Shown: piece by piece, positions 3,266 through 22,700 of the stretch
Numbering within the stretch: the stretch's first letter is position 1
Layout of the letters: the number at the start of each line of letters is the position of its first letter
Source: Phyllosticta citribraziliensis
Taxonomy: Eukaryota
Direction: 5' to 3'
Length of the DNA stretch: 64,000 bases
NCBI RefSeq assembly: GCF_038025025.1
Contig: NW_027117352.1
Coordinates: 124,001 to 188,000, forward strand
Notes under the pieces: model-generated
The model's database searches: none
Told to the model about the DNA's origin: nothing
The model's input: the letters and a program-made list of their open reading frames with translations, nothing else
Made by a program: the position numbers and the translations under genes

Positions 3266-5772
3266 TGGAGCTGGTGAAGCCAAATCGTCTCCGCTCTTTC
3301 ATTTCTTGAGTTTTTCATTTCTACTTTGCAAAATCACAGTTTGAGGGCACATACTCGACGAGAAGAAGCATGGTCGGCCAGACAAAAAACTTTCATTTAC
3401 AACCCCGCTGGAGGGTTAGCACGCATCGCGAATGTCCTCGGCGGGAATGTCACGCTGAGGACCACAGATACAGCGTATCTCGTCGTTTCCCTTCTCATTA
3501 TCTCACTTATTTTCTCTTGAACAGTGCGGTTGATTGTTTCTTGCTCTTAGCGCCAAAACACATACCATGGAGAGGCAGGAAGCGGCGGGCCTTTTTGGGT
3601 CGATTGAAGCTTTTCTCTTCAGCATCCAGTTCTGCGGCTAATTTGTGAGCAAGATGGAATAGCAGCGTTGTCAACCATGATTTGTCTGAAAAGTGTTTTA
3701 TAGCTGACAACCGAGGCGTCATTTTGTACCATTTTGTCATGCAGCCCTACGTATATTGCTGTCAACCCCCGCCACGGCGGCCAGCTCTGGACAGTTGATC
3801 CCGGTAGGTCTGGAGCTCCTCCTTCCCTTTTTTGAAAGCATGGCGTTGAATCACCTGCAAGGTCGTCGGCTCCTCCATGTCCTGGTACCCAACGTCACCC
3901 TGTACCGTTCGCTTCGAACCAAGAAAGAATTCGCCGAAAATATGCAGCTTGGCGTCATGACCGTTACTGCCCAAGTTTCACACTTGACGCAGCACAACAA
4001 CGCCTTCAATTAAATGAGCTTGTTGCAACTTGGGAGGGACGGGATGATCCGCCAACCCGCTCAATAACAACCCGGGCCGACATGTCTGATCGCGGGTCTC
4101 GAGTTCGACGGGAGTTCCATCGCCGCCGCCTCTGCCTAGTCGTGTTTCCCTTCACATGCAGACGCTTTTTTTCTTTCTCTTTATGACAGATCCGATGATG
4201 GCGGTGTACAGGCCTTTGTTTCATTCCTCCGCTCTTTGTCATTCATCCTCCGCCCAAGAAGCCGTGAACCTGACGCTCGGCTCATTCTCATTCATATTGG
4301 AGTCTGCTGCAAAGAGCGCTTTTTCTCATTTTTGAAAAACGCCTTCGTCATAGCGCCGCCCACACTCTCTTCTTTATTCACCTCCAACAAATGTTCCTTT
4401 AAATTTTTCTCTTTGCGGCTTAGACCGCGGATGATGCTGCCCCCCGCGTCTGGCCATTGTACGCGCACCGCGCCACCTCGCTAGCTTCATACCTGTGCTT
4501 CCCATAGCCCTGCAGTCCTTGGATATCCCGCCAGCCCCCTCGATTCTGGCGGTTGACATGGCTGCTGCAATCTCTCCATCGCCGCCAGCGAGCGAGCGAG
4601 CTGTCATGTCTTGCTTTTGCTCTCGCTGGCGTTCCACAGTACCGGTCTTGTCTGGCCTGCAAGACGCCCTTGCGCTCAAGCGCGCGGTGTCGCTGCGAGG
4701 CGCGGGGAGACGAGCATCGGCGGACGGCTGCTGGCTGGCTGTCTGCCGCGAGCGAGCGAGCGAGAGGTGAGGCAACCGAAATGCTACTGCCATCCAGGAC
4801 CCGAGAATGCCGCTCTTGGCGTGGCGGGAGGCGTGACGGCGTCTCAAACGCGGTTTGGCACTATAGGGCGCATGAAAGAGCTTGGGCATGAGGCGGTGCT
4901 GTCTGAACAGGCAATCCCTTATTGCGACTGTGGCTCATTTCTCTTCGCAGCCTGCGTGGCGTCCCTGCTGGGAGTCGTCTGCTGGCCTCCCCTTGTCACG
5001 TCATTGTTCATTTCTTGTTTGTTTTCTTGCTCTCTTCCCTTCCCGATCATCCAGGCCCTTGGCATCAAGTTGGCGATGGATGGTCAGGTGTTTCCGCAAC
5101 GTGTGTATCATGCCTACGCATCGATCTTTCCCTCGTTCCCCTTACAGCCCGCGTGGTTGCACGCACGAGACTTGGATAGCGGTGATAGGAACGGCGGGAG
5201 GCCGCAGGTGCAAACGTTGGTTCCTGGTGTTGTGTTTTTGTGGCACCATGAGCCTTTTTCCCGTGTTCCTGTTCAACGTGCATCTGGCTGGCACCTCAGT
5301 GTCCCGCATCTGGTGTCACGTCCTGCACTATATGACAGCGCACACTGAACGAAACTTCAAACACTTTGCGACGACATGGCAGGCACGGCAGAAAAGCAGC
5401 AGACTGACCGCTGTTCGTGATGGTACGTCTTTGCTCGGGCCTTGCAGAAACGCACGAGCTGCTATTGGCTCGTTGTTTCGAGGGCGCCAGGCTGCACCCC
5501 AGAGCCTCGACAAGAGTCCAAAACGGGCCAAGCAAACACACCTCCGAGTTTGATGGCTTCAAGCAGCGGACGCAAGTTGTGGCACACATCATCCGCAGAG
5601 ATTGGGATGAGGAGGGTGTTCAAGACAAGCAGTGATGAGTAGATTCTATCCTGTCCTGAGCGGGAGACTCCGGCTGTGGGTGCCACGGCTTCCACCAACC
5701 TGATTGGACGTTAGGTCGAACTACATGGTAAGGCGACGAGCTCTAGTACCTATTGTTTACCTGGCCTTCCTC

Positions 5773-5783
5773 TATTATAAAAG
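5773..5783 (+). promoter_or_regulatory. TATA box upstream of GH16 gene
   Basis: TATTATAAAAG about 290 nt upstream of ATG 6066. Confidence 0.5.
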
Positions 5784-6065
5784 CCTCGAGGCTTGGCTTT
5801 TGTCTAGGTCTTCTTGTCTTTGTGTCTAGCTTCGTGGTGGAATCACCTTCCTTTTGACTCATAACAAACCTTTGTGGGAATATTTTCTGATACTCCCTAC
5901 CTCAACACCAGTTTCCGCCTCAGGCACACACCAACTAGGAAATTGTTCTATTTTCTTAGCGCGTATCCAGCCTTTCCTTTTCAACACCAACCTTTTGCAC
6001 TCACGGTCGCAACATACTTTCTACCTCACTGCCCACACTTTCGTTTATCCCGCCCGCTCAACGGC

Positions 6066-8009
6066 ATGGCCCGTTTTCATCTTCACCTCGCAACCCTGGC
6101 GGCTGCGATTCTTGCTCCCACCGGCAGCGCCGCCCCAACCTCGTCAAGCACGCTCAGCTATTGGCTTCTTCATGATTACGTCCCGGAGACGTTCTTCAAC
6201 AATTTTACATTCTTCTCTGGCCCAGCTGACCCAACTCACGGCACTGTCAACTACCTCTCTTCTCACAAGGAAGCTGTCAACAAGCAGCTCATTGGCACTG
6301 GCACTGCCGACGATGGCACCACGACTGTCAAGATTGCAGTAGACGCGAAGACCAAGCTGCAGGGCAATGCTGGACGCAACTCAATCCGCATCACGAGCAA
6401 GAACAAGTACAACAAGGGCCTTTTTGTATTCGACGTGATCCACATGCCTCCCTCCGTCTGCGGTCTTTGGCCAGCGCTCTGGCTGCTCGGCGAGCCCGAG
6501 GCCGAGTGGCCCAAGAATGGTGAAGTCGACATCATCGAGGGCGTCAATCAGCAGAGCGGCAACCTCATGACGCTGCATACCAAGAGCGACTGCAAGATCG
6601 GCAACTCCGTCTCGAGCACCTCGACCAATCCGGATGCCATCACATACACGGGCAAACGAACCACTGTCAACTGCAACGCCTACGCCGGCAATGGCTGCCA
6701 AATCGCTGCGCCAAAGGGCTCTTCTGCGGCCGATTCTACTGAGCAGGCTGCGAACAGCTACAGCTCCGGTGCCACCTACGGCACGGCGCTCAATGCCCAA
6801 GGAGGTGCTATTGTTGCAGTCGAGTGGACCACAGGCGGCTTCAAGATCTGGTCCTGGCCGCGCAACTCTGCCCCGTCCTCTGTCAAGTCAACCACCGCTA
6901 GCAACCCTTCCAATGTCACGCCCAGCAGCGACTTTGGCACGCCCATCGCCCACTTTGGCGGCCAGGGCTGCGCTTGGAACGACAACTTCAAGGACCTCGC
7001 CTTTGTCATCAACACCGACTTTTGCGGCGATTGGGCCGGCAACGTGGACTGGAACGGCGGCACTTGCACCAAAAAGACAGGCTACAAAACCTGCTCCAAC
7101 TACGTGAGAGACCACCCGGAGGCATTCGCTCAGGCATACTGGGAATTCGGTCCCGTTCGTTACTTCGCGCCATCGACTTCTTACGGCTACAGCGGCAGCA
7201 ACTTCGCTGGCGAATCGTCCAGTGACGGCAGCGCTCTCGAGAGCAGCAACGGCATCGACAACGACGACTCCTCTCAGCTCGCCGGCGACGTCCAAAACAC
7301 GACCGCTCTCGTCGACGACACTTACGATGCTCTTACCAGTGACACTCAGAACTCGACGACGCCCATTCCCGACGCGGTCCCGTCGACGCTGCTTTCCATT
7401 TCCAGGCTGACAAGCACGCCCGTGAGCATACTAGCATCTTCTGCATCAGGGAGCGCAGCTCCGTCCGCAACTAACGCGCCCAATCTTTTTGCAGGCATGA
7501 CGGAAACGCACGTATCTTCGTCCCTCGACGTCTACCGAAACGCCTCTGCCCCGTCCTCGTCCTCCTCGCGCCCTTCGTTGATCGTCCCGCCGTTCTTCCA
7601 CTTCAACCTTTCGCGGCCCGCTGCTTCGAGTTACGCCGTTTCGTCCCTCGTAAACGTCACTTCGACGCCGTTGCCGTGCGCGGGCTACAATGCTACCGCA
7701 CGTCTCCTCGGCTGCTCTCCCCGTCTGCCGCCGTACCCCAACAAAGCGTTACCGCGTCCGTCGTTTACTCCGTTTTTGAACAGTAGCAGTAGCAGCAACT
7801 GCAACAGCAGCGCCGTCACTTCGACAAGCAGTACCACAGCTCAGGGCCCTACTCCGCCAACCGCTTCGCTCATGACTTCAACTACGACTGTCAATCCAAC
7901 GACTACGCTGGTCGTGCCTGCTGCTTCGTCGGCGGCCGCGGGCGGCATGGTCGAGGCGTCGTTGGCGGCCTTGATCGCCGTCATGGTCTTCATGGTCGTT
8001 TTCATGTGA
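6066..8009 (+). CDS. Glycoside hydrolase family 16 (Lam16A-like endo-1,3(4)-beta-glucanase), secreted, Ser/Thr-rich tail, probable GPI anchor
   Basis: Signal peptide MARFHLHLATLAAAILAPTGSA; motifs DPTHGTVNY, GRNSIRI, CGLWPALW, catalytic GEVDIIEGVN, NTDFCGDWAG; long S/T-rich linker; hydrophobic C-terminus LAALIAVMVFMVVFM. Confidence 0.92.
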   Translation: MARFHLHLATLAAAILAPTGSAAPTSSSTLSYWLLHDYVPETFFNNFTFFSGPADPTHGTVNYLSSHKEAVNKQLIGTGTADDGTTTVKIAVDAKTKLQGNAGRNSIRITSKNKYNKGLFVFDVIHMPPSVCGLWPALWLLGEPEAEWPKNGEVDIIEGVNQQSGNLMTLHTKSDCKIGNSVSSTSTNPDAITYTGKRTTVNCNAYAGNGCQIAAPKGSSAADSTEQAANSYSSGATYGTALNAQGGAIVAVEWTTGGFKIWSWPRNSAPSSVKSTTASNPSNVTPSSDFGTPIAHFGGQGCAWNDNFKDLAFVINTDFCGDWAGNVDWNGGTCTKKTGYKTCSNYVRDHPEAFAQAYWEFGPVRYFAPSTSYGYSGSNFAGESSSDGSALESSNGIDNDDSSQLAGDVQNTTALVDDTYDALTSDTQNSTTPIPDAVPSTLLSISRLTSTPVSILASSASGSAAPSATNAPNLFAGMTETHVSSSLDVYRNASAPSSSSSRPSLIVPPFFHFNLSRPAASSYAVSSLVNVTSTPLPCAGYNATARLLGCSPRLPPYPNKALPRPSFTPFLNSSSSSNCNSSAVTSTSSTTAQGPTPPTASLMTSTTTVNPTTTLVVPAASSAAAGGMVEASLAALIAVMVFMVVFM

Positions 8010-14147: not shown

Positions 14148-16259
14148 CTACACATCCCAACCCACCCACTCGCCCTTCGGCGGCACCTCCGGCACAACGC
14201 CATCCCGCCACATCCCCGTCTCGCGAACGAACGCATACGCCTCGGCCAACTCGCGGCCAGCGTCGCCCTCGTACGCGGCGGGCGGGCCCTCGTGGAACGG
14301 ATTCGCCTCGGCCGGCGGCGTCGGGTGCCAGATGCGGATCAGCGCGCCGCTGCGGTCGGCCGGGTCGCGGTAGCAGGGCACGTTGGGCGCCGGATACTCG
14401 ACGCGCTGCCCTTTCCACGTGATGAGGCGGTTGGTGGCGGGGTCGTGGGTTGCGGGGTGGACGGCGGCGGAGGCGTGGAGGGAGGAGGAGGTGGTGGTTG
14501 TGCCGTTCGGTTGCTGCTGTTGTGTGGTGCTGTTGTTGGTGGCGGCGGGTTGGCCAAAGGCGTTGAGGCCGCCGCCGCCGCCGCCCGTTGTCGTGGGCTG
14601 CTGCTGCTGCTGCTGTTGCTGCTGGAAGGGATTGCTGGGCTGCGCTTGAGCGGGTTGGCCGAAGGGCGAGGGCGTCGGCTGCTGCTGCTGCTGCTGCTGC
14701 TGTGCCTGTGGATTGCCAAAGGCGCCGCCCGTCGGCTGAGCAGGCGGGAAACCACCGCTGTTCTGGGGTGCCGCTGGCTGGCCAAAAGCCGGCTGTCCGA
14801 ATCCTGGTGTTGCGGCCGGTTTGCCGAAGACTCCGCCGCCTGGTTGCGATGGCTGCCCGAATGCTGCGCTGCCGGGTTGCGATGGTTGGCCGAATGCTGC
14901 TGCTCCGCCGGGTTGCGATGGTTGGCCAAATGCTGCTGCTCCGCCGGGTTGCGATGGTTGACCAAATGCTCCGCCGCCGGGTTGAAACGCCTGGCCAAAC
15001 GCTGGTTTGCCGAACGCACCGCCTGCTGGCTGGCCGAATGCGCCGGGCTGAGAGGGCTGGCCAAAGGCTGCTGGTTGGGTCTGGGGATGGTTTTGGCCCG
15101 GGTTGGCGGGCTGTCCAAAGGCAGGTTTTCCAAAGGCGCCGCCGGCTGCGCTGCTGTTGGCGCCCAGAGACGACGGAGCACCAAACGCGCCGCCTTGGTT
15201 GGGTTGGGAAAAGGACGAAGGCCTACCAAACGCAGACTGCTGTTGTTGTTGTTGCTGCTGGCCACCGGCGGGCGCTCCGAAGCTGGGCTGGCCGAAGCCG
15301 CTGGGCTTGTTTGCTCCAAAGGCCGCGGGACCAGTTGGAATCGGCCGGCCAGAAGCTGCGCTTCCGCCTCTAGAGAAGGTGTTGGAGGTTTGAGAAGAGG
15401 TTTGATCGCAAATATCGTTGCGGTTGGGATGCATGTTATCCCCATCAAGCACAAACTTGATTGCTCCAGGCAGGTCGTTCAAGATGGACTGGACCTGTTG
15501 ATTTGATTGTTCCAAGAGGGCAGTCTCTTCGGCGGCCTACACGTTCTGGTCAGCTGGAAGTGATCTTCCTGGCGTCGTGAGACTTACAGCTTGCTGTGGA
15601 TTGCCCAAGGCATAGAATCGGAACCGCATCTCTTCGGGGCTCTGCTCAATGGCGCCCTCGATCAGTTGTCGAGGCACAGCCTTGGCCGGTCCGTAGGCTG
15701 AGAAGGGCCATATCGGTCGTTCGGTGCTCAAGTCGATGCGGATCACTTCCTGATCCAAGTTGTATCTTGCTGCGAGGTTAGATGGGCGAGCCGGGAAGGG
15801 CGACTTGGGCGACGTACTTGTTGTTTGGGACTTTTTTATTTCGACTCCAGTTAGACGCTTTGAGCGAACGCATCGTGAAATGGTGAAGTAAAGAGACGAG
15901 ACTTGTTCAAAGTTGAAGGAGAGAAGAGGTGGCAAGAGCAGGGGATTGAAATATCGTAAGGTCGAGGCAAAGCAGCGAGCGGGCGAAAGCCAAACATTGG
16001 AAACATGGATCCAAAAATCAACAAAACTTCAGACTCACCATTGCGGGGCGGCGCTCTGGCAGCACCGCCGCCAAACTGATTATTCAGAGCTCCGTAGCGA
16101 TTTTGGGTCTGTTGCGGCGCGCGACCTTGGGTAACTTGTCCTGGATGCTCAAACTTGCATCTCTCTGGACAGCGTGAGCATGCAGCCAAGCCGGTGTCAG
16201 AGTTGTCGCTCACCTCCGAATCTACAGTTGCCCTGCTGGAAGTACCTGCATACGGTCAT
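14148..16259 (-). CDS. NUP42: CCCH zinc-finger FG-nucleoporin Amo1/Nup42
   Basis: N-terminal MTVCRYFQQGNCRFG-ERCKFEHP zinc finger; DLSTERPIWPFSAYGP..EQSPEEMR block; many FGQP/FGKP repeats; C-terminal GVVPEVPPKGEW; three GT-AG introns. Confidence 0.9.
14835..14990 (-). repeat. Intragenic ~33-36 bp tandem repeat encoding AFGQPSQPGGAA units
   Basis: Near-identical units ccgccgggttgcgatggttggccgaatgctgctgct on the + strand, about 4 copies. Confidence 0.85.
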
Positions 16260-16773
16260 GGCGAAAGATCTAACGTCCAATACCCACTGGTCGAATTAGC
16301 ATATTATGAGAGGTGAGGTTGACGGCGCTGGAGTCAAAGGAACTTCATTGTCAGCTAGCCGAGTGTCGCTCATTGGCGGGCCGAGAGGAATGCGGCGTGC
16401 GGAAGCGCAGCACAACAACAGCACAGCCGGCAGCGCGCTTCAAAGGACATCGAGAACGCCGGCGTACCTATGGATGTATGACTGTGTGGTGTTGAATTTT
16501 TCGACGGCTGCGAGTGCCGTCCGGTCGCCGTCGTGACGCGCGCCGCGCCAAGAAGCACCCGACCACTGGCCTCCCAAGTCCCAACGCGCCGCGCCAACCT
16601 GACTTGATCAACTCCCGTCCAGTCCGCATATCCCAGACGGCCCGCCAAAGCTTTGCCCTCGTCATGCGCCTGGCGTCCGACACGCCCATCTCCACATTCG
16701 CCGCCGACGTCTGCTTCTCCTCCAGTCTCCATTGACCTGACCCGTCCCGCGCCGTCGCCCATCTCCCCGCCTC

Positions 16774-17168
16774 ATGCACCCATTCTCCGTCCTCACTCTC
16801 GGCATCTTCATCGCGGGATATATTACTGCTCGCTGGGACCTCGTCACTCGGCTGTATGAGCTTGCAATCTTTGCTTGGGATCACGGTGTCGTAGTACGAC
16901 TGCCCGCTCCGCAATGCTTCGCCAGGAATGCTGACTCGCTTCTCCAGACGCGCGCTGCAAAGGGAGCTGCCATCCTTACCGTGGCCTTCGTCGTCATTGC
17001 TCTGCCAGTATCGCTGATAGCAGAACACGAGTCGAAGCTGGTGTGTTTGACCCACTCGCGCAACCTGAGCCTTGACCGAATCGCAACGACTGACTGGCGC
17101 AGCATCCTCGGACCGGAGGCGTGGGCATATCCGCACGGGAGCAGCTCAAGCGACGCGGCTCCTTTTAG
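16774..17168 (+). CDS. 92-aa small membrane protein of unknown function immediately upstream of GPI1
   Basis: Exons 16774-16893, 16948-17040, 17103-17168 with canonical GT/CTGAC/CAG signals give MHPFSVLTLGIFIAGYITARWDLVTRLYELAIFAWDHGVVTRAAKGAAILTVAFVVIALPVSLIAEHESKLHPRTGGVGISAREQLKRRGSF*. Confidence 0.78.
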
Positions 17169-17188
17169 CCCCGGGGCGGAATGTTGAC

Positions 17189-19612
17189 ATGGTCACGAAC
17201 AATGGGTTGATGCGCGTTTTCTGGCCCTCAGATGCGTCCTCTGGATCGAGCGCCGGAGTCTTGCTGGGATGGAGAAACTCGGAATCGGACTTTTTCGTCA
17301 TAACGGTAATGCGCGATGTAGAGGTGAGTCGTCTACCCAACTCTGCAGACCACGACTGACGCGACGTAGCCGCGCGCGGTGGAGAACGCCTTGCGCGTAG
17401 GGACGCTCTTTCGCAATGCCCCTTATGCGATTGAGGACATTCTGGAGCGATGCGGCCATTCTACTCTACAAGTCCTCGGCGTCCTCAACCCTCAAGTCCC
17501 GCCGACTGGCTTCGATCCTGGATACTTGGTCTCCCATACCTCACCCAAATCGCGATTCCCCAGAATATACTGTCCCGAGGCCTCCGTAACCGTCCAGGTC
17601 ATTCTTTTCGACCGACCAGATCCAGCCCGCATGCAATACTTTTCACTTACGCCCATTTCATTGGCGCTTGGAGACAAACCAGACAGCGCGGCAAGAGACA
17701 TGGTGCCGGTCGACGGAATAGACGCCGAGGAGCAGCAGGAAAAGATAAATCGACAGAAGCTCGTGGAGAAGCTCAAATTGCACACGGTCATTAAGCGCGT
17801 GCCGAGTCAAAAAGAGTTGTCACTTCCGGACATTGTGGTTCAAGCCAACTGCTCCCACGAAATCGCCGCCTTGTGCCAGAAGAATGCACGACTCATCGGG
17901 ACCCGAACAAGGCGAGCTTTAAGTATGGGAGAACGTGTCGTCGAATCTGCTACAACATTGTGGCATCAAGTCTTGGTTTTCATTTGGCACGTCTTGAGCG
18001 TTTGGATCTACCCGGTGGTGACGCAACTGTTCATTCTGGGGCTCATAGCGCATAGGATCGCTGGAGAGTTGATTCTCCGCGTCCTGGACTGGCGATTGCT
18101 CCCCGATTCTGCAGCTCTAAAGGACGTATCGGCCACGGCACAGCAAGTGGACATTCGGCTCCAGCAATTTTGTTATTGGCCGATCCAATTCCAGACTCTC
18201 CAAAAGAGAAAATGCCACTGGCAAAGCATCACGAGCAGCCACCCCGAATATATTCGCTTCTACAACAGCTTGTGGCTGGTTGCGAACGACGTCATTATCG
18301 GCATCGCCCTCGGTTCCTACATCATTGAGAATGCCGAGTTTGTTGCCTGCCAGGTAGATGAAGTCCTAACAGAGTGGTCCATCGAGGGCTTGCGGAGAAT
18401 GATATCCTGGCTGATGGATTGGCCGGCGGGATTGAAACTCAACAATGAATTGGCGCAATTCTTAGGAGACCTCTTCTTGTGGGTTATCGACTACTGGGCT
18501 GGTGAGTCTTGCAACAACAAATCTCCAATCTTTTCTGACAAAACAGGCTGCATCGCAACGCTCCGTCCATTTCTCCCCGAAGTTATTAGCTTCATCGGCT
18601 TCTCCAGCTTTGCCGGCGCGACCATGCCGATTTCCCTCTTCTCCGACTTGGTCTCAGTTCTTACGCTGCACATATACTCCTTCTACATTGCGTCTGCCCG
18701 CATCTTCAACTGGCAGCTCAACATAATCTTCTCCCTCTTCCACCTCTTCCGCGGAAAGAAGCGCAACGTCTTGCGTAACCGTATAGACTCGTGCGACTAC
18801 GACCTTGATCAGCTGCTACTCGGGACGATTCTCTTTACGCTACTGTTTTTCCTCCTGCCAACAGTCTTTGTTTTCTACCTCACTTTTGCATCAGCGAGAA
18901 TGTCAATAATAGTCCTCAAAGCTGTTCTTGATACCCTGCTAATGCTTTTGAACCATTTCCCAATATTTGCCTTGATGCTCCGCATCAAGGATTCTGGGCG
19001 TTTACCTGGTAAGCAACGCAAGTTAATGCACTTCAAGGTTCCGTGCTTATCAGTCTAGGCGGCATCCGTTTTGATCTTCAAGATACCCGTTCCGCAAAAC
19101 TTCCGGAACAAAGCCCGCATTCCGCTCCTACTTCGTACATCATTCTCAAGGTAACGATTACTTCATCTTACACCTGCAGACTCTTCTCTGACCTCCGCCA
19201 GTCTGTCCCTCTCAGTTTCTGGGCCATGTTCCACCAATACTCTCAGCTCGGCACGCGGATACGCAAGCACTACATCTCGCCCGGCGTCTTCCTGTGCCTG
19301 GTCACGGGCCGCTTCGTGCCTCCCATCCACCGCAAAAACCTCTACAGCCTGCAGTACAGCATGCTGCCGGCTCGGCGAGCCAGCATCTTGGAGCTCTGGG
19401 CCCGGCTGACCGAGGACCACGATGGCAACAGCAAGGATCACCATCACCACCACCACTACTACTTCTCCAACAACGATAAGAAGATCAAGGATGGGAGGCG
19501 CACCTCGGGCTTGGGGTCTGGCGCTGGCTGGAGCGGCGTCGCGAATGGGTATGCTGGTGCGGCGGGCAAGGAGAGGGTCAATGGTGTGCCGAGGAGGCAG
19601 AAGGGCTTGTAG
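17189..19612 (+). CDS. GPI1: GPI N-acetylglucosaminyltransferase subunit Gpi1 (PIG-Q)
   Basis: MVTNNGLMRVFWP..GVLLGWRNS; SATAQQVDIRLQQFCYWP; WLMDWPAGLKLNNEL; SLFHLFRGKKRNVLRNRIDSCDYDLDQLLLGTILFT; introns 17324-17369, 18502-18546, 19009-19058, 19151-19201. Confidence 0.95.
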
Positions 19613-20181
19613 ATGTGCCTGCGGGGCGAGCGTAATTCTAGACGATTCCCACGACTGGATTGAGCTGAACATGCTTGGTTATATGTTGGCTGTCTTGCAA
19701 TGTGCTTGAATGGATTTGTGTCAGTAAGTCCTCGCGTTACAGGGCGGAATCGACGTCATCCCTATCGCTCTCTAGGTACATCTGCGCCATGGCTGATGCG
19801 TTCAGCCGCCGAATCTGGAGGGAATATCACAAGGGGGGCAGTAAGAGAAATGGCAGCTCCTGGCAATGCGATTGGACATATGGAGCCATGTATATACCTC
19901 GAGACAGTGGAGACGGTGGTGGCCGAGGCTGTTGAGATTATGTGGGTATGTCGGTGGCGAAGAATAAGGAAGGCATTGCATATGGATTTGGAGCAACGGC
20001 CTTCGAGGAGGACACAGCTGCACCTCAGGAGCGATATTTCAGGATCACATCTGATGTTTGGATGCGCTTGTGTGGGTCTATCGTTACGATGAAGTTGAGT
20101 CCAATAATTCAATCCTTCTCATTGCGTTGTTCAACTGTCTGTCCACAAAACACCAAATCGTCCTCCCTGCATGTACTTCGC

Positions 20182-22700
20182 TCATCCCACAAACCGCCTC
20201 AATCGTCTCTTCGCACCCATGACGCCAACACCAGCCTCACTCGCGCCACTCTCCCTGTGCACCCACGGCACACGCCCGACATCAACCTCCGATCCTCCGC
20301 CCGCCGCCGCCGCAGCACCCTTCCTGTCCCTCTCGCGCCTCGCCCACTCATCCATCTGCACGTCCTCGAGGTACGCCCACGCCGGGACGTCGAGCGCGCC
20401 CAGCACGAGCAGCGTGCGCCGCGGGTCGCGCAGCTCGTCGAGCAGGTGCTCGTTGGCGGGCGGCACGAGCAGGTGCAGCGCCTGGTTGGGCGCGTCGATG
20501 CCGCGGACGAGCGCCAGCGTGACGAGCCGCGACGTCTGCGGAGACGGCGGCTCCAGCGTGCGCCGGTTGCGCCGCGGCGCTGCGATGTACGGGATGTGGT
20601 GGGGCGCGGGGCTGTGGGCGACGCGCGAGGCGAAGGTGCTGTCGTTGGTGTCGTCGGTGTCGGCGATGGCGCTGGTGGTTGTCGAGGAGGGGGACAGCTC
20701 GACGACGCCGACGATGGCGCCGTTGAGGACGGTGGGGAGGTGTGTTGGCGCTACGGCGTCGCCGGTTGCTAGCACCGCGAGGAAATCGGGTGAGCTGCTA
20801 GCATAGGAGACAACATAGGGCCGGAGTTGCGTCAGGGGCGTCGCGTCCCATGCTTGGTGTGAGTCGTTTTGGCGTGGGGTCGCGAGGTGAAAGTACGAGA
20901 GTGCTTGCATTGTGCGAAAGTCGGCCGGAGAGCGGGACGGGTGGCCCGAGGGCTGCGATGGAATGGGTTGAAAGCGCTGAACGGTAGTGGCCGAAGTGGT
21001 CGTGGCAGCGGTTGTGAGGGCCTCGAGAGCTCGGCTGGGCTCGTCGCTTGTGAAGATGAGGTCCGTCGGGGAGAGGCGTGAAAGCAGGGACAGGAGGATC
21101 TGGAGGCCTGTCCCGATGGTCCAGCCGGGGCAGTTGATGATGAGTGGTCCGCGCGTGTTGCCAAAATTGAGGTGTTTGTGGTAGGCAGTGGCAAGATCAA
21201 TGGCGCACTCGACAAAGTGCTCTGGGTTGTCTTTGGGACTGTTTGCTCCGATGAAATGTGCTCGCACGGTGCGCTGATGCGTGCCTGTCGTCGCGCTGGG
21301 GTGGGCAAATGGAGGGCCGAAAAATGGCAGGCGAAGTTCTATCAGTGAGATCTGCCCGGGTGGTCCGTATTCGGGTTGTCCTGGGTCAATGTCGAGGAGA
21401 AATACAGAATGACTCTCTGACTTCATAGCCTCGCGGTCAATGGTGAAGAGACGATTGAGCAAAAATCTGCTAAATGTGGACTTTCCAGACGATTTGGGAC
21501 CACAGACTAGGATTTTCTCGAAGAGATTCGATTTGCGCTTTGACGCCGCCGAACAAATCTTGTCAATAGCCTTGTGCCACTCTGGAGGCATCTCGAGATG
21601 ATACAGCGGTCTGCCTAGCGAGTCATCTGATAAGACGTGGATCTAGAGCCATATGTCAGCAAAATTTGAAGTGGTGCAAAAACCGGCAAGCCTACATTTT
21701 CAAACGACCAGCGCTTCTTTTGATTCCGCAAAAAAGACTGATCCACAGACTCTTCGGCTTTCCAAAGACGTCCGTACAAAGGCGAAAGCCTTTCCATCAA
21801 AGGCAGCTGTGAAGTGATAGACTTCAGCTCCACTTCAGCTCCACCCGGGGAAAGGCACTGTAAGACGGGCAGAGCATGTGTAGCTGGAGCAAAGACTCGA
21901 TAGAACATGGCATGAGGCCCCGCACGCAATATTGCTCCGTACAGTGTAACAACGCCTCGCTTGACAAGGACGTCATACATGCCCACACTGGCGAGGGTCT
22001 GGCCAGGCGCAAGACGAACCGTCATGCCATTGGAGTTGTGTTTTGAGACATTTTCCAGAGACGGCGTCCAAGAGGAGACCTCGACACTCGGTGCTGCGTA
22101 CACTGCATTCCAAGTGTCGCCAGACGCTTGATTACGGGAATCATTTTGAAATCCAGTTTCGGCCTCATCACTTGGCCTTGGGAGGTAGTCGGGCTCATAG
22201 CTGTCCACGCTATTGTCGCTGTCGTCAGCGTCTTTAAGAACCAACAACTTGGCCTGTTCCTCGAGCGCTGCTCGTCGAGCCTCGACAGCAGAGAGAGGCT
22301 TGGGCACGTGAGCAGTAGAATCGACAGGCCGCTTTCCAGGTGCTTTTCCAAGAGCTTCTGCTATAGGTGCAGTCGCACCCACAGAACTCGACGCGTCTTG
22401 GCCATTTTCGGCCGATTTAGCCTTGTCCTTGCTCTTTTTTCGCACGCGCGACTTTGACGAAGTTTTGGCACCAGCAGCTTCACCTAAGCTTTCTTCTCTC
22501 GGCGCTGTCCCACTGCTCTCGGAAATTGCCTGCTGTCTGCGCGCACGAAGTGCAGCAGCAGCACTCAATGGTGCTAGAAAAACACATCTGTCAGGGATAT
22601 TAGATCCAACGAAACTGCATTCAAAAGGATGCATACAAGCAGGATCATTGGAGGTTTCCGGGAATTCAATTTTCCTCCGTTTGGGCATTTTTGTATCCAT
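20182..22700 (-). CDS. GRC3: Polynucleotide 5'-hydroxyl kinase Grc3/Nol9 (pre-rRNA processing)
   Basis: Walker A VCGPKSSGKST, DIDPGQPEYGPPG, LIINCPGW, LALVRGID; two short introns join ORFs 21615-22700 and 20182-21591. Confidence 0.92.

Follow-up and report, generated by a model that had tools for sequence, protein, structure and literature searches.

A conserved 92-residue membrane-protein gene immediately upstream of GPI1 in Pezizomycotina and its probable expression from a shared bicistronic mRNA

Gene structure and transcription of the GPI1 locus

In the window analysed here, a 64,000-nt stretch of the Phyllosticta citribraziliensis genome (contig NW_027117352.1, positions 124,001 to 188,000; positions below count from its first nucleotide), a small open reading frame (ORF) of three exons lies directly upstream of GPI1, the gene for the Gpi1/PIG-Q component of the glycosylphosphatidylinositol-N-acetylglucosaminyltransferase (GPI-GnT). 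The small ORF encodes a 92-residue protein that is conserved across Pezizomycotina and adjoins GPI1 at every locus that could be tested, and both ORFs are probably translated from one bicistronic mRNA by leaky scanning. The initial annotation of this DNA had described a small ORF with canonical splice signals that ends in a TAG at 17168, a GPI1 ATG at 17189 in a different frame after a gap of 20 nt, and an extra out-of-frame ATG at 17181 within this spacer. All of these coordinates were verified in the sequence, and both introns of the small ORF are present in RNA contigs (Table 1). The downstream ORF matches the Pfam family PF05024 (GPI1) with an E-value of 3.2e-39 and 135.4 bits against a cut-off of 22.2, from its exon 2 alone.

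The frame of the small ORF is also open without splicing, from 16774 to a TGA at 17185–17187, and the GPI1 frame is open upstream as far as 17069, so the gene model could not be decided from the sequence alone. RNA data were available as Logan assembled contigs, which give no transcript ends, strand or expression level, from four runs (X1, X5, X6 and X7, belonging to two studies) of 23 matching runs. Run X1 has no mismatch to the window and is spliced, and is thus an RNA assembly of the window's organism; runs X5–X7 are plant-metagenome RNA-Seq containing a relative of about 95% identity. The 54-nt GT..AG intron that joins 16893 to 16948 was found in X1, and X6 and X7 carry an equivalent intron with three letters differing. 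The joint of 17040 to 17103 (62 nt) and the splicing of all four GPI1 introns were found in four of four runs. No splice joint between the small ORF and GPI1 was detected in the four runs or in spliced contigs of other species, in agreement with the initial annotation, in which the nearby CAG/TAG acceptors examined did not fuse the two frames. These data prove the 92-codon gene model and rule out a dominant fusion isoform.

Transcribed RNA also covers the gap between the two ORFs, as contigs are unbroken across 17168–17189 in all four runs. The X6 contig (2691 nt) covers 16644–19633, which is just the small ORF and GPI1. Spliced contigs also cross the gap in five or six other species, and five contigs (L010, 2623 nt; L011, L017, L022 and L043) are intronless over both ORFs and contain little else. 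Introns are present in the genomic twins of L022 and L043, which makes these two contigs cDNA assemblies spanning both ORFs. The claim of the initial annotation that one mRNA encodes both proteins is accordingly sustained to the extent that the gap is bridged by spliced contigs from the window's organism, its relative and these other species; that both ORFs share a single molecule is what the assembled contigs suggest and do not prove.

Table 1. Coordinates of the small ORF, GPI1 and associated features in the window
Feature	Position	Strand	Evidence
23-codon upstream ORF, probable 5' leader; nearest ATG upstream of the small ORF, at -110	16664..16735	+	inside the X6 RNA contig
Start context of the small ORF; C at -3 and C at +4, weak	16768..16777	+	
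Small ORF exon 1, codons 1-40 (ATG 16774); first hydrophobic helix and nearly invariant amphipathic helix	16774..16893	+	RNA joints, family alignment, AlphaFold2 helices 2-18 and 21-36
Small ORF intron 1, 54 nt, GTACGA..CTGAC..CAG	16894..16947	+	joint 16893 to 16948 in run X1; position kept in relatives
Small ORF exon 2, codons 41-71; long hydrophobic helix	16948..17040	+	RNA joints; AlphaFold2 helix 39-71
Small ORF intron 2, 62 nt, GTGTGT..CTGAC..CAG	17041..17102	+	joint in runs X1, X5, X6 and X7
Small ORF exon 3, codons 72-92 and TAG 17166-17168; family-wide ...REQL(K/R)RRGSF tail	17103..17168	+	RNA joints, family alignment
Intercistronic spacer, 20 nt	17169..17188	+	unbroken contig cover in four runs
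Mini-ORF, 9 codons; ATG 8 nt before the GPI1 ATG; TGA 17208-17210 overlaps Met8 ATG 17210-17212	17181..17210	+	sequence; ATG-N5-ATG in 30/53 distinct relatives
GPI1/PIG-Q, 743 aa; five exons 17189-17323, 17370-18501, 18547-19008, 19059-19150, 19202-19612	17189..19612	+	PF05024, RNA joints
GPI1 introns	17324-17369, 18502-18546, 19009-19058, 19151-19201	+	RNA joints

The upstream neighbour of the gene pair is a CCCH zinc-finger gene on the opposite strand that starts near 16258, and the downstream neighbour is a convergent CLP1_P-family gene (20182–21642). An upstream region of about 500 bp is common to the pair and the divergent CCCH gene. The 20-nt gap upholds the earlier statement that no promoter fits between the two ORFs. 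The X1 contig runs on into the CCCH gene (about 16128–16300) and, beyond 19900, into the CLP1_P gene, which reflects either transcripts that overlap at both ends of the unit or an assembly join. The palindrome GCCCCGGGGC at 17168–17177, which had been noted as overlapping the stop, is present in the window and is incidental; it is broken in the ~95% relative (17172 C>G) and missing from the other loci, and was rejected as a functional element.

Conservation of the 92-residue protein

A database search with the unspliced ORF returned 747 relatives at E ≤ 0.01. Mean column identity is 85% among spliced 92-residue forms of named Dothideo-, Sordario-, Leotio- and Eurotiomycetes. The most divergent full-length homologue found is that of Peziza, and 92-residue forms are also listed for Orbilia; with these two added to the other classes, the family spans Pezizomycotina. 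No named match from other fungal groups was among the matches listed by these word-seeded searches, which report best matches only. A comparison set of 80 metagenome loci and the window yielded 78 gene models (77 loci and the window). The protein is 91–93 residues long in 78/78 models, introns, where present, follow codons 40 and 71, and a stop codon closes the small ORF in every model. The conservation of the peptide, put forward in the initial annotation as something to be checked, is thus well borne out.

Among 51 distinct coding sequences of 279 nt, 49 codons are at least 90% conserved as amino acid. The third positions of these 49 codons have an entropy of 1.3–1.6 bits in all three exons, with a mean of 1.6 bits in exon 3. 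Because the amino acids are conserved while synonymous sites are saturated, selection acts on the protein and not on an RNA element, and a conserved RNA element in exon 3 was rejected on this ground. Conservation within the family peaks in the 13 residues that precede the stop, and this holds even for the Peziza homologue. The peptide is therefore a real, conserved protein under strong protein-level selection. AlphaFold2, run with an alignment of 17 sequences, predicted helices at residues 2–18, 21–36, 39–71 and 82–88 with a mean predicted local distance difference test score of 80.6; those at 2–18 and 39–71 are hydrophobic. The initial annotation had likewise recognised two hydrophobic segments.

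Similarity searches did not connect the protein to a characterised family. Pfam contained no family for the unspliced ORF, nor for three spliced homologues at E ≤ 10, and a PDB sequence search with the family profile gave no match at E ≤ 10. Foldseek comparison of the AlphaFold2 model with the PDB gave one match with an E-value of 6, which is meaningless, and in the ESM Atlas only the family's own two clusters were found, with no named neighbour. A profile search of 1.84 billion representatives recovered 264 proteins at E ≤ 0.001. The best 150 of these 264 all belong to the same family and are mostly ORF calls running into introns; no distant family was found among them.

Linkage to GPI1 and the intercistronic spacer

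A tblastn search with the window's GPI1 placed the GPI1 N-terminus immediately after the small ORF, in the same orientation, at 74 of the 80 loci. The contigs of the other six stop within about 170 nt of the small ORF, so that linkage is found in 74/74 testable loci. The distance from the stop codon to the GPI1 ATG is 6–32 nt in 52 of 53 distinct sequences, with a median of 20 nt, and 63 nt in the remaining one. Both the conserved adjacency and the short spacing that had been proposed as a check are hence confirmed. The spacer occurs in all three frames (19, 16 and 18 of the 53 distinct sequences), which excludes readthrough or a fixed frameshift. The predicted RNA fold at the junction is not unusual (z = +0.63), and RNA structure at this position was rejected as a candidate signal.

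Within GPI1 itself, the match is split between residues 318 and 319 in a few loci, by about 2.4 kb in L070/L071 (about 5409–7868) and by about 0.65 kb in L073/L074, each an unusually large intron or an insertion. At the C-terminus, the histidine run at 19431–19440 differs by 3–6 bases in the ~95% relative, and the C-terminal tail is unalignable among relatives.

Start codon contexts and AUG content

The AUG of the small ORF has a pyrimidine at -3 in 56/56 distinct sequences (48 T and 8 C) and a C at +4 in 52/53, while positions -1, -2, -4 and -5 are free to vary. At the GPI1 AUG, -3 is a purine in 47/53, and in the window G occupies both -3 and +4. A weak context at the first ORF and a better one at the second is the configuration that leaky scanning requires.

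Internal methionine is absent from the peptide (0 of 5093 residues), as against 562 of 24502 residues (2.3%) in GPI1 of the same loci. Of the variable aliphatic columns, 65 of 143 contain methionine in GPI1 and 0 of 23 in the peptide. Out-of-frame ATGs in the small ORF number 54, compared with about 67 expected from synonymous shuffles, of which 1–2% are as low. The codon for His37, which precedes Gly38 and would create an ATG if it were CAT, is CAC in 42/42 sequences, and CAT is used for His72 in 30/50.

Very short ORFs accompany both start codons in many relatives. An ATG 8 nt before the GPI1 ATG is present in 30 of 53 distinct sequences, with a purine at -3 in 30/30, and opens a mini-ORF of 3–9 codons in 24 of these 30. 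In a 3-codon class (10/30), the stop of the mini-ORF overlaps the GPI1 ATG as ATGA; in a 9-codon class (9/30), to which the window belongs, the overlap is with the conserved Met8 ATG and reads TGATG; the remaining 11/30 have this stop elsewhere. At the first start, 28 of 55 distinct relatives have a tiny upstream ORF (uORF) of 3–9 codons (mode 4) that ends 0–25 nt (mode 10) before the small-ORF ATG (e.g., L031, L036, L059, L062, L065 and L073, about 25 nt upstream of the small-ORF ATG). The ATG of this uORF has a purine at -3 in 25/28. Thirteen further relatives of the 55 have an upstream ATG whose ORF overlaps the first AUG. The window lacks a near uORF and has only the 23-codon uORF at -110.

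Fused gene models in databases

Among the 120 longer matches listed, 107 are PF05024 GPI1 models of 500–1100 residues with the small ORF fused to the N-terminus (database proteins P0258–P0369). They come from Neurospora, Fusarium, Colletotrichum, Penicillium, Aspergillus, Histoplasma, Blumeria, Xylona, lichen fungi and Phyllosticta citriasiana. Three fused models from three genera were inspected and have three different ad hoc junctions. The chimeric GPI1 N-termini are a systematic mis-annotation across Pezizomycotina. The fusion of the small ORF to GPI1 in gene models also accounts for stand-alone 92-residue proteins that bear the name 'PIG-Q'.

In models from Sordariomycetes, the fusion to the small ORF also takes in a PF05254 (UPF0203) gene that lies upstream, and some of these models include GPI1 as well (P0085, P0142, P0259, P0262, P0265, P0269, P0276, P0297, P0302, P0303, P0319, P0340, P0349 and P0350). 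These fusions indicate that the PF05254 gene lies close by on the same strand in Sordariomycetes; it is not a neighbour in the window.

Translation of the two ORFs

The initial annotation left three routes to GPI1 translation: reinitiation, leaky scanning or recoding. Recoding is excluded by the spacer in three frames, and leaky scanning is favoured because of the weak context of the first AUG and the lack of Met codons behind it. The probable explanation, in our view, is a bicistronic mRNA that carries the small ORF and GPI1 and is read by leaky scanning. The two ORFs would form one transcription unit, with its promoter in the ~500-bp region common with the divergent CCCH gene, and the unit would yield a spliced bicistronic mRNA. 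Part of the scanning 40S subunits would start at the weak AUG of the small ORF and produce the 92-residue helical membrane protein. The remaining subunits would bypass this AUG, traverse an ORF that is free of in-frame AUGs and has few in the other frames, and initiate in good context at the GPI1 AUG, 20 nt past the small-ORF stop. The tiny uORFs before one or both AUGs probably tune this split in many lineages. Delayed reinitiation after very short uORFs is known from GCN4 and ATF4, and a 3–5-codon uORF that ends about 10 nt before the first AUG, as in the 28/55 relatives, could similarly make 40S subunits skip this AUG. The likeness does not extend to the window, which lacks a near uORF.

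Several observations weigh against this explanation. An mRNA in which four introns follow the stop of the first ORF should be a target of nonsense-mediated decay, and leaky scanning alone does not need a spacer held at 6–32 nt. The ATG 8 nt before the GPI1 ATG, with its purine at -3, should intercept scanning ribosomes. The depletion of ATGs is incomplete: one or two out-of-frame ATGs are kept in 41/56 distinct coding sequences, mostly at nucleotide 82 (36/56), where the Tyr28 codon TAT is not avoided. The weak contexts of these internal ATGs provide no independent evidence, because the coding sequence forces them, and the argument from His37 is weakened because His2 is always CAC as well, with no ATG at stake. 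Because the 56 sequences are relatives of one another, they do not count as independent events. Finally, all RNA evidence consists of assembled contigs, and a contig that spans two genes does not show a single transcript. Merging of units does happen in such assemblies, as the 6085-nt X1 contig reaches into the genes on either side, and a Zymoseptoria Iso-Seq preprint describes overlapping fungal transcripts that are mis-joined in short-read assemblies (10.1101/2023.04.26.537486).

The spacer is the feature best explained by termination-reinitiation, in which 40S subunits would be kept after the 92-codon ORF and restart at the GPI1 AUG a few bases on. A range of 6–32 nt with a median of 20 nt (52/53) is typical of coupled termination-reinitiation, the highly conserved last 13 residues could act from the exit tunnel, and the stop/start overlaps ATGA and TGATG recur at the mini-ORF by the GPI1 start. 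Such a mechanism would, however, gain from a strong first AUG, where a pyrimidine at -3 is found in 56/56, and it does not predict the absence of Met. Exon 3 shows no nucleotide-level conservation that would mark a ribosome-tethering motif (third-position entropy 1.6 bits), the fold at the junction is ordinary (z = +0.63), and reinitiation is normally inefficient after about 90 codons. Apart from the tight spacer, nothing favours termination-reinitiation, and we regard it as unlikely. The merging of units in X1 and the mis-joining described in the Zymoseptoria preprint lend some weight to another arrangement, two overlapping monocistronic mRNAs, with a GPI1 start inside the small gene, a 3' end of the small gene inside GPI1, and bridging contigs that are assembly joins. 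The depletion of ATGs in the 3' half of the small ORF could also be selected if this part served as the GPI1 5' untranslated region. This arrangement leaves the universally weak context of the first AUG unexplained, and it needs a promoter and a poly(A) site inside two coding regions in every lineage, with the ORFs 6–32 nt apart. Contigs with exactly both ORFs also recur across several species, and two separate mRNAs therefore seem improbable to us.

The remaining alternatives deny the small ORF a separate functional product. It occupies the position of a uORF, its start is weak and its invariant C-terminal tail abuts the stop codon, and searches of Pfam, the PDB and the ESM Atlas assigned it no partner or family, all of which would suit a purely cis-acting regulatory uORF of GPI1 whose released peptide has no function. 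The fixed length of 91–93 residues in 78/78 models, the two conserved introns, and amino-acid conservation over the whole length with saturated synonymous sites argue against this. The structure model has three confidently predicted helices, of which two are hydrophobic, and known peptide-dependent uORFs are much shorter; the cis-acting reading is thus very unlikely. Still less credible is that the small ORF forms the N-terminal part of GPI1 through splicing, readthrough or frameshifting, as the fused database models would have it. The window does contain a poor donor, at 17045, through which the frames could be joined, but the RNA contigs carry no such joint, a stop codon ends the small ORF in all 78 models, the spacer falls in all three frames (19/16/18), and the junctions of the fused models vary from model to model. 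With these alternatives weighed, leaky scanning remains the explanation we prefer.

Possible function and comparison with known systems

From its position and co-expression, the peptide is most plausibly a partner or regulator of Gpi1 or of GPI-GnT in the endoplasmic reticulum (ER) membrane. The suggestion in the initial annotation that it is a GPI-pathway partner has gained no support so far, its position being the sole link and similarity to Pfam families or solved chains being absent. A complex prediction of the small protein with Gpi1 residues 1–690 scored 0.00 in a run that used neither alignments nor controls, and is uninformative either way. The invariant C-terminal ...RRRGSF resembles an arginine-based ER-retention signal beside a basophilic kinase site. 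As a speculative proposal, which we hold only tentatively, the peptide may be an unrecognised Pezizomycotina-wide subunit or an assembly or regulatory factor of the first GPI-anchor enzyme, an independently arisen functional counterpart of PIG-Y/Eri1. Its ratio to Gpi1 would then be set translationally on the shared mRNA, with leaky scanning at the weak AUG and tiny uORFs making the ratio responsive to initiation-factor status, and ...RRRGSF would serve as a phosphorylation-controlled ER-retention signal.

The small membrane subunits described for GPI-GnT include Eri1/PIG-Y, Gpi19/PIG-P and DPM2 (PMC3184424). The peptide is likewise small, has two predicted hydrophobic helices and is associated in the genome with the GPI-GnT pathway. 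In contrast to them, it has no Pfam or PDB match at E ≤ 10, no fold match and no named Atlas cluster. The human PYURF-PIGY bicistronic transcript, reportedly described originally by Murakami in 2005, is similar in that a GPI-GnT component shares an mRNA with a small unrelated ORF, as Gpi1 probably does here, and offers a precedent for such an arrangement. In PYURF-PIGY, which is named as a characterised human bicistronic transcript (PMC13303939), the GPI-GnT subunit is the small downstream ORF (PIG-Y), whereas at the present locus it is the large downstream ORF (Gpi1/PIG-Q) and the small ORF lies upstream. The small proteins of the two loci have no sequence relation.

Polycistronic transcripts have reportedly been recovered in fungi with long reads by Gordon et al. 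in 2015. Adjacent same-strand genes on one RNA are common to that work, the Zymoseptoria preprint and, probably, the present pair. Those fungal polycistrons are reportedly mostly rare read-through or overlapping transcripts without evidence of translation of the second ORF. The GPI1 pair differs from them in its conserved translational signatures and a spacer of just 6–32 nt. Another analogue is the HIV-1 vpu-env mRNA, in which a small membrane protein with a weak AUG is encoded upstream and the second ORF is reached by leaky scanning; the small ORF here likewise encodes a putative membrane protein, has a weak AUG and lies ahead of a second ORF. Among nuclear genes, bicistronic genes of green algae use leaky scanning, with a weak context at the first ORF and depletion of start codons, as confirmed by mutation (Duenas et al. 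2024 preprint, PMC11291117). They share with the GPI1 locus two conserved coding ORFs, which in the present case probably also lie on one capped mRNA, a weak first start and, less completely here, depletion of start codons before the second ORF. The green-algal case, as that preprint describes it, is a genome-wide class, whereas the present one is a single pair across one subphylum of filamentous ascomycetes. The GPI1 locus has additional mini-ORFs at both starts and is known from sequence signatures, while the green-algal genes were tested by mutation.

A literature search found no description of the small ORF-GPI1 pair, with subscription journals and bioRxiv supplements outside its reach. 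The eukaryotic bicistronic mRNA with leaky scanning is already known as a kind; new here are a deeply conserved case in Ascomycota and an uncharacterised protein family. The locus also explains two widespread database artefacts, the chimeric GPI1 N-termini and the 92-residue proteins called 'PIG-Q'. If the proposed expression is true, Ascomycota would have here one of the rare protein-coding bicistronic mRNAs that are deeply conserved, with sequence signatures that make the mechanism directly testable. GPI-anchor synthesis is indispensable to the cell wall of fungi, and Pezizomycotina include most plant-pathogenic and many human-pathogenic moulds. As a source on Gwt1 inhibitors reports, GPI-anchor synthesis is also an antifungal target (PMC11294708). 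With this locus, the GPI1 gene of a whole subphylum gains a strongly conserved, uncharacterised membrane protein at its side.

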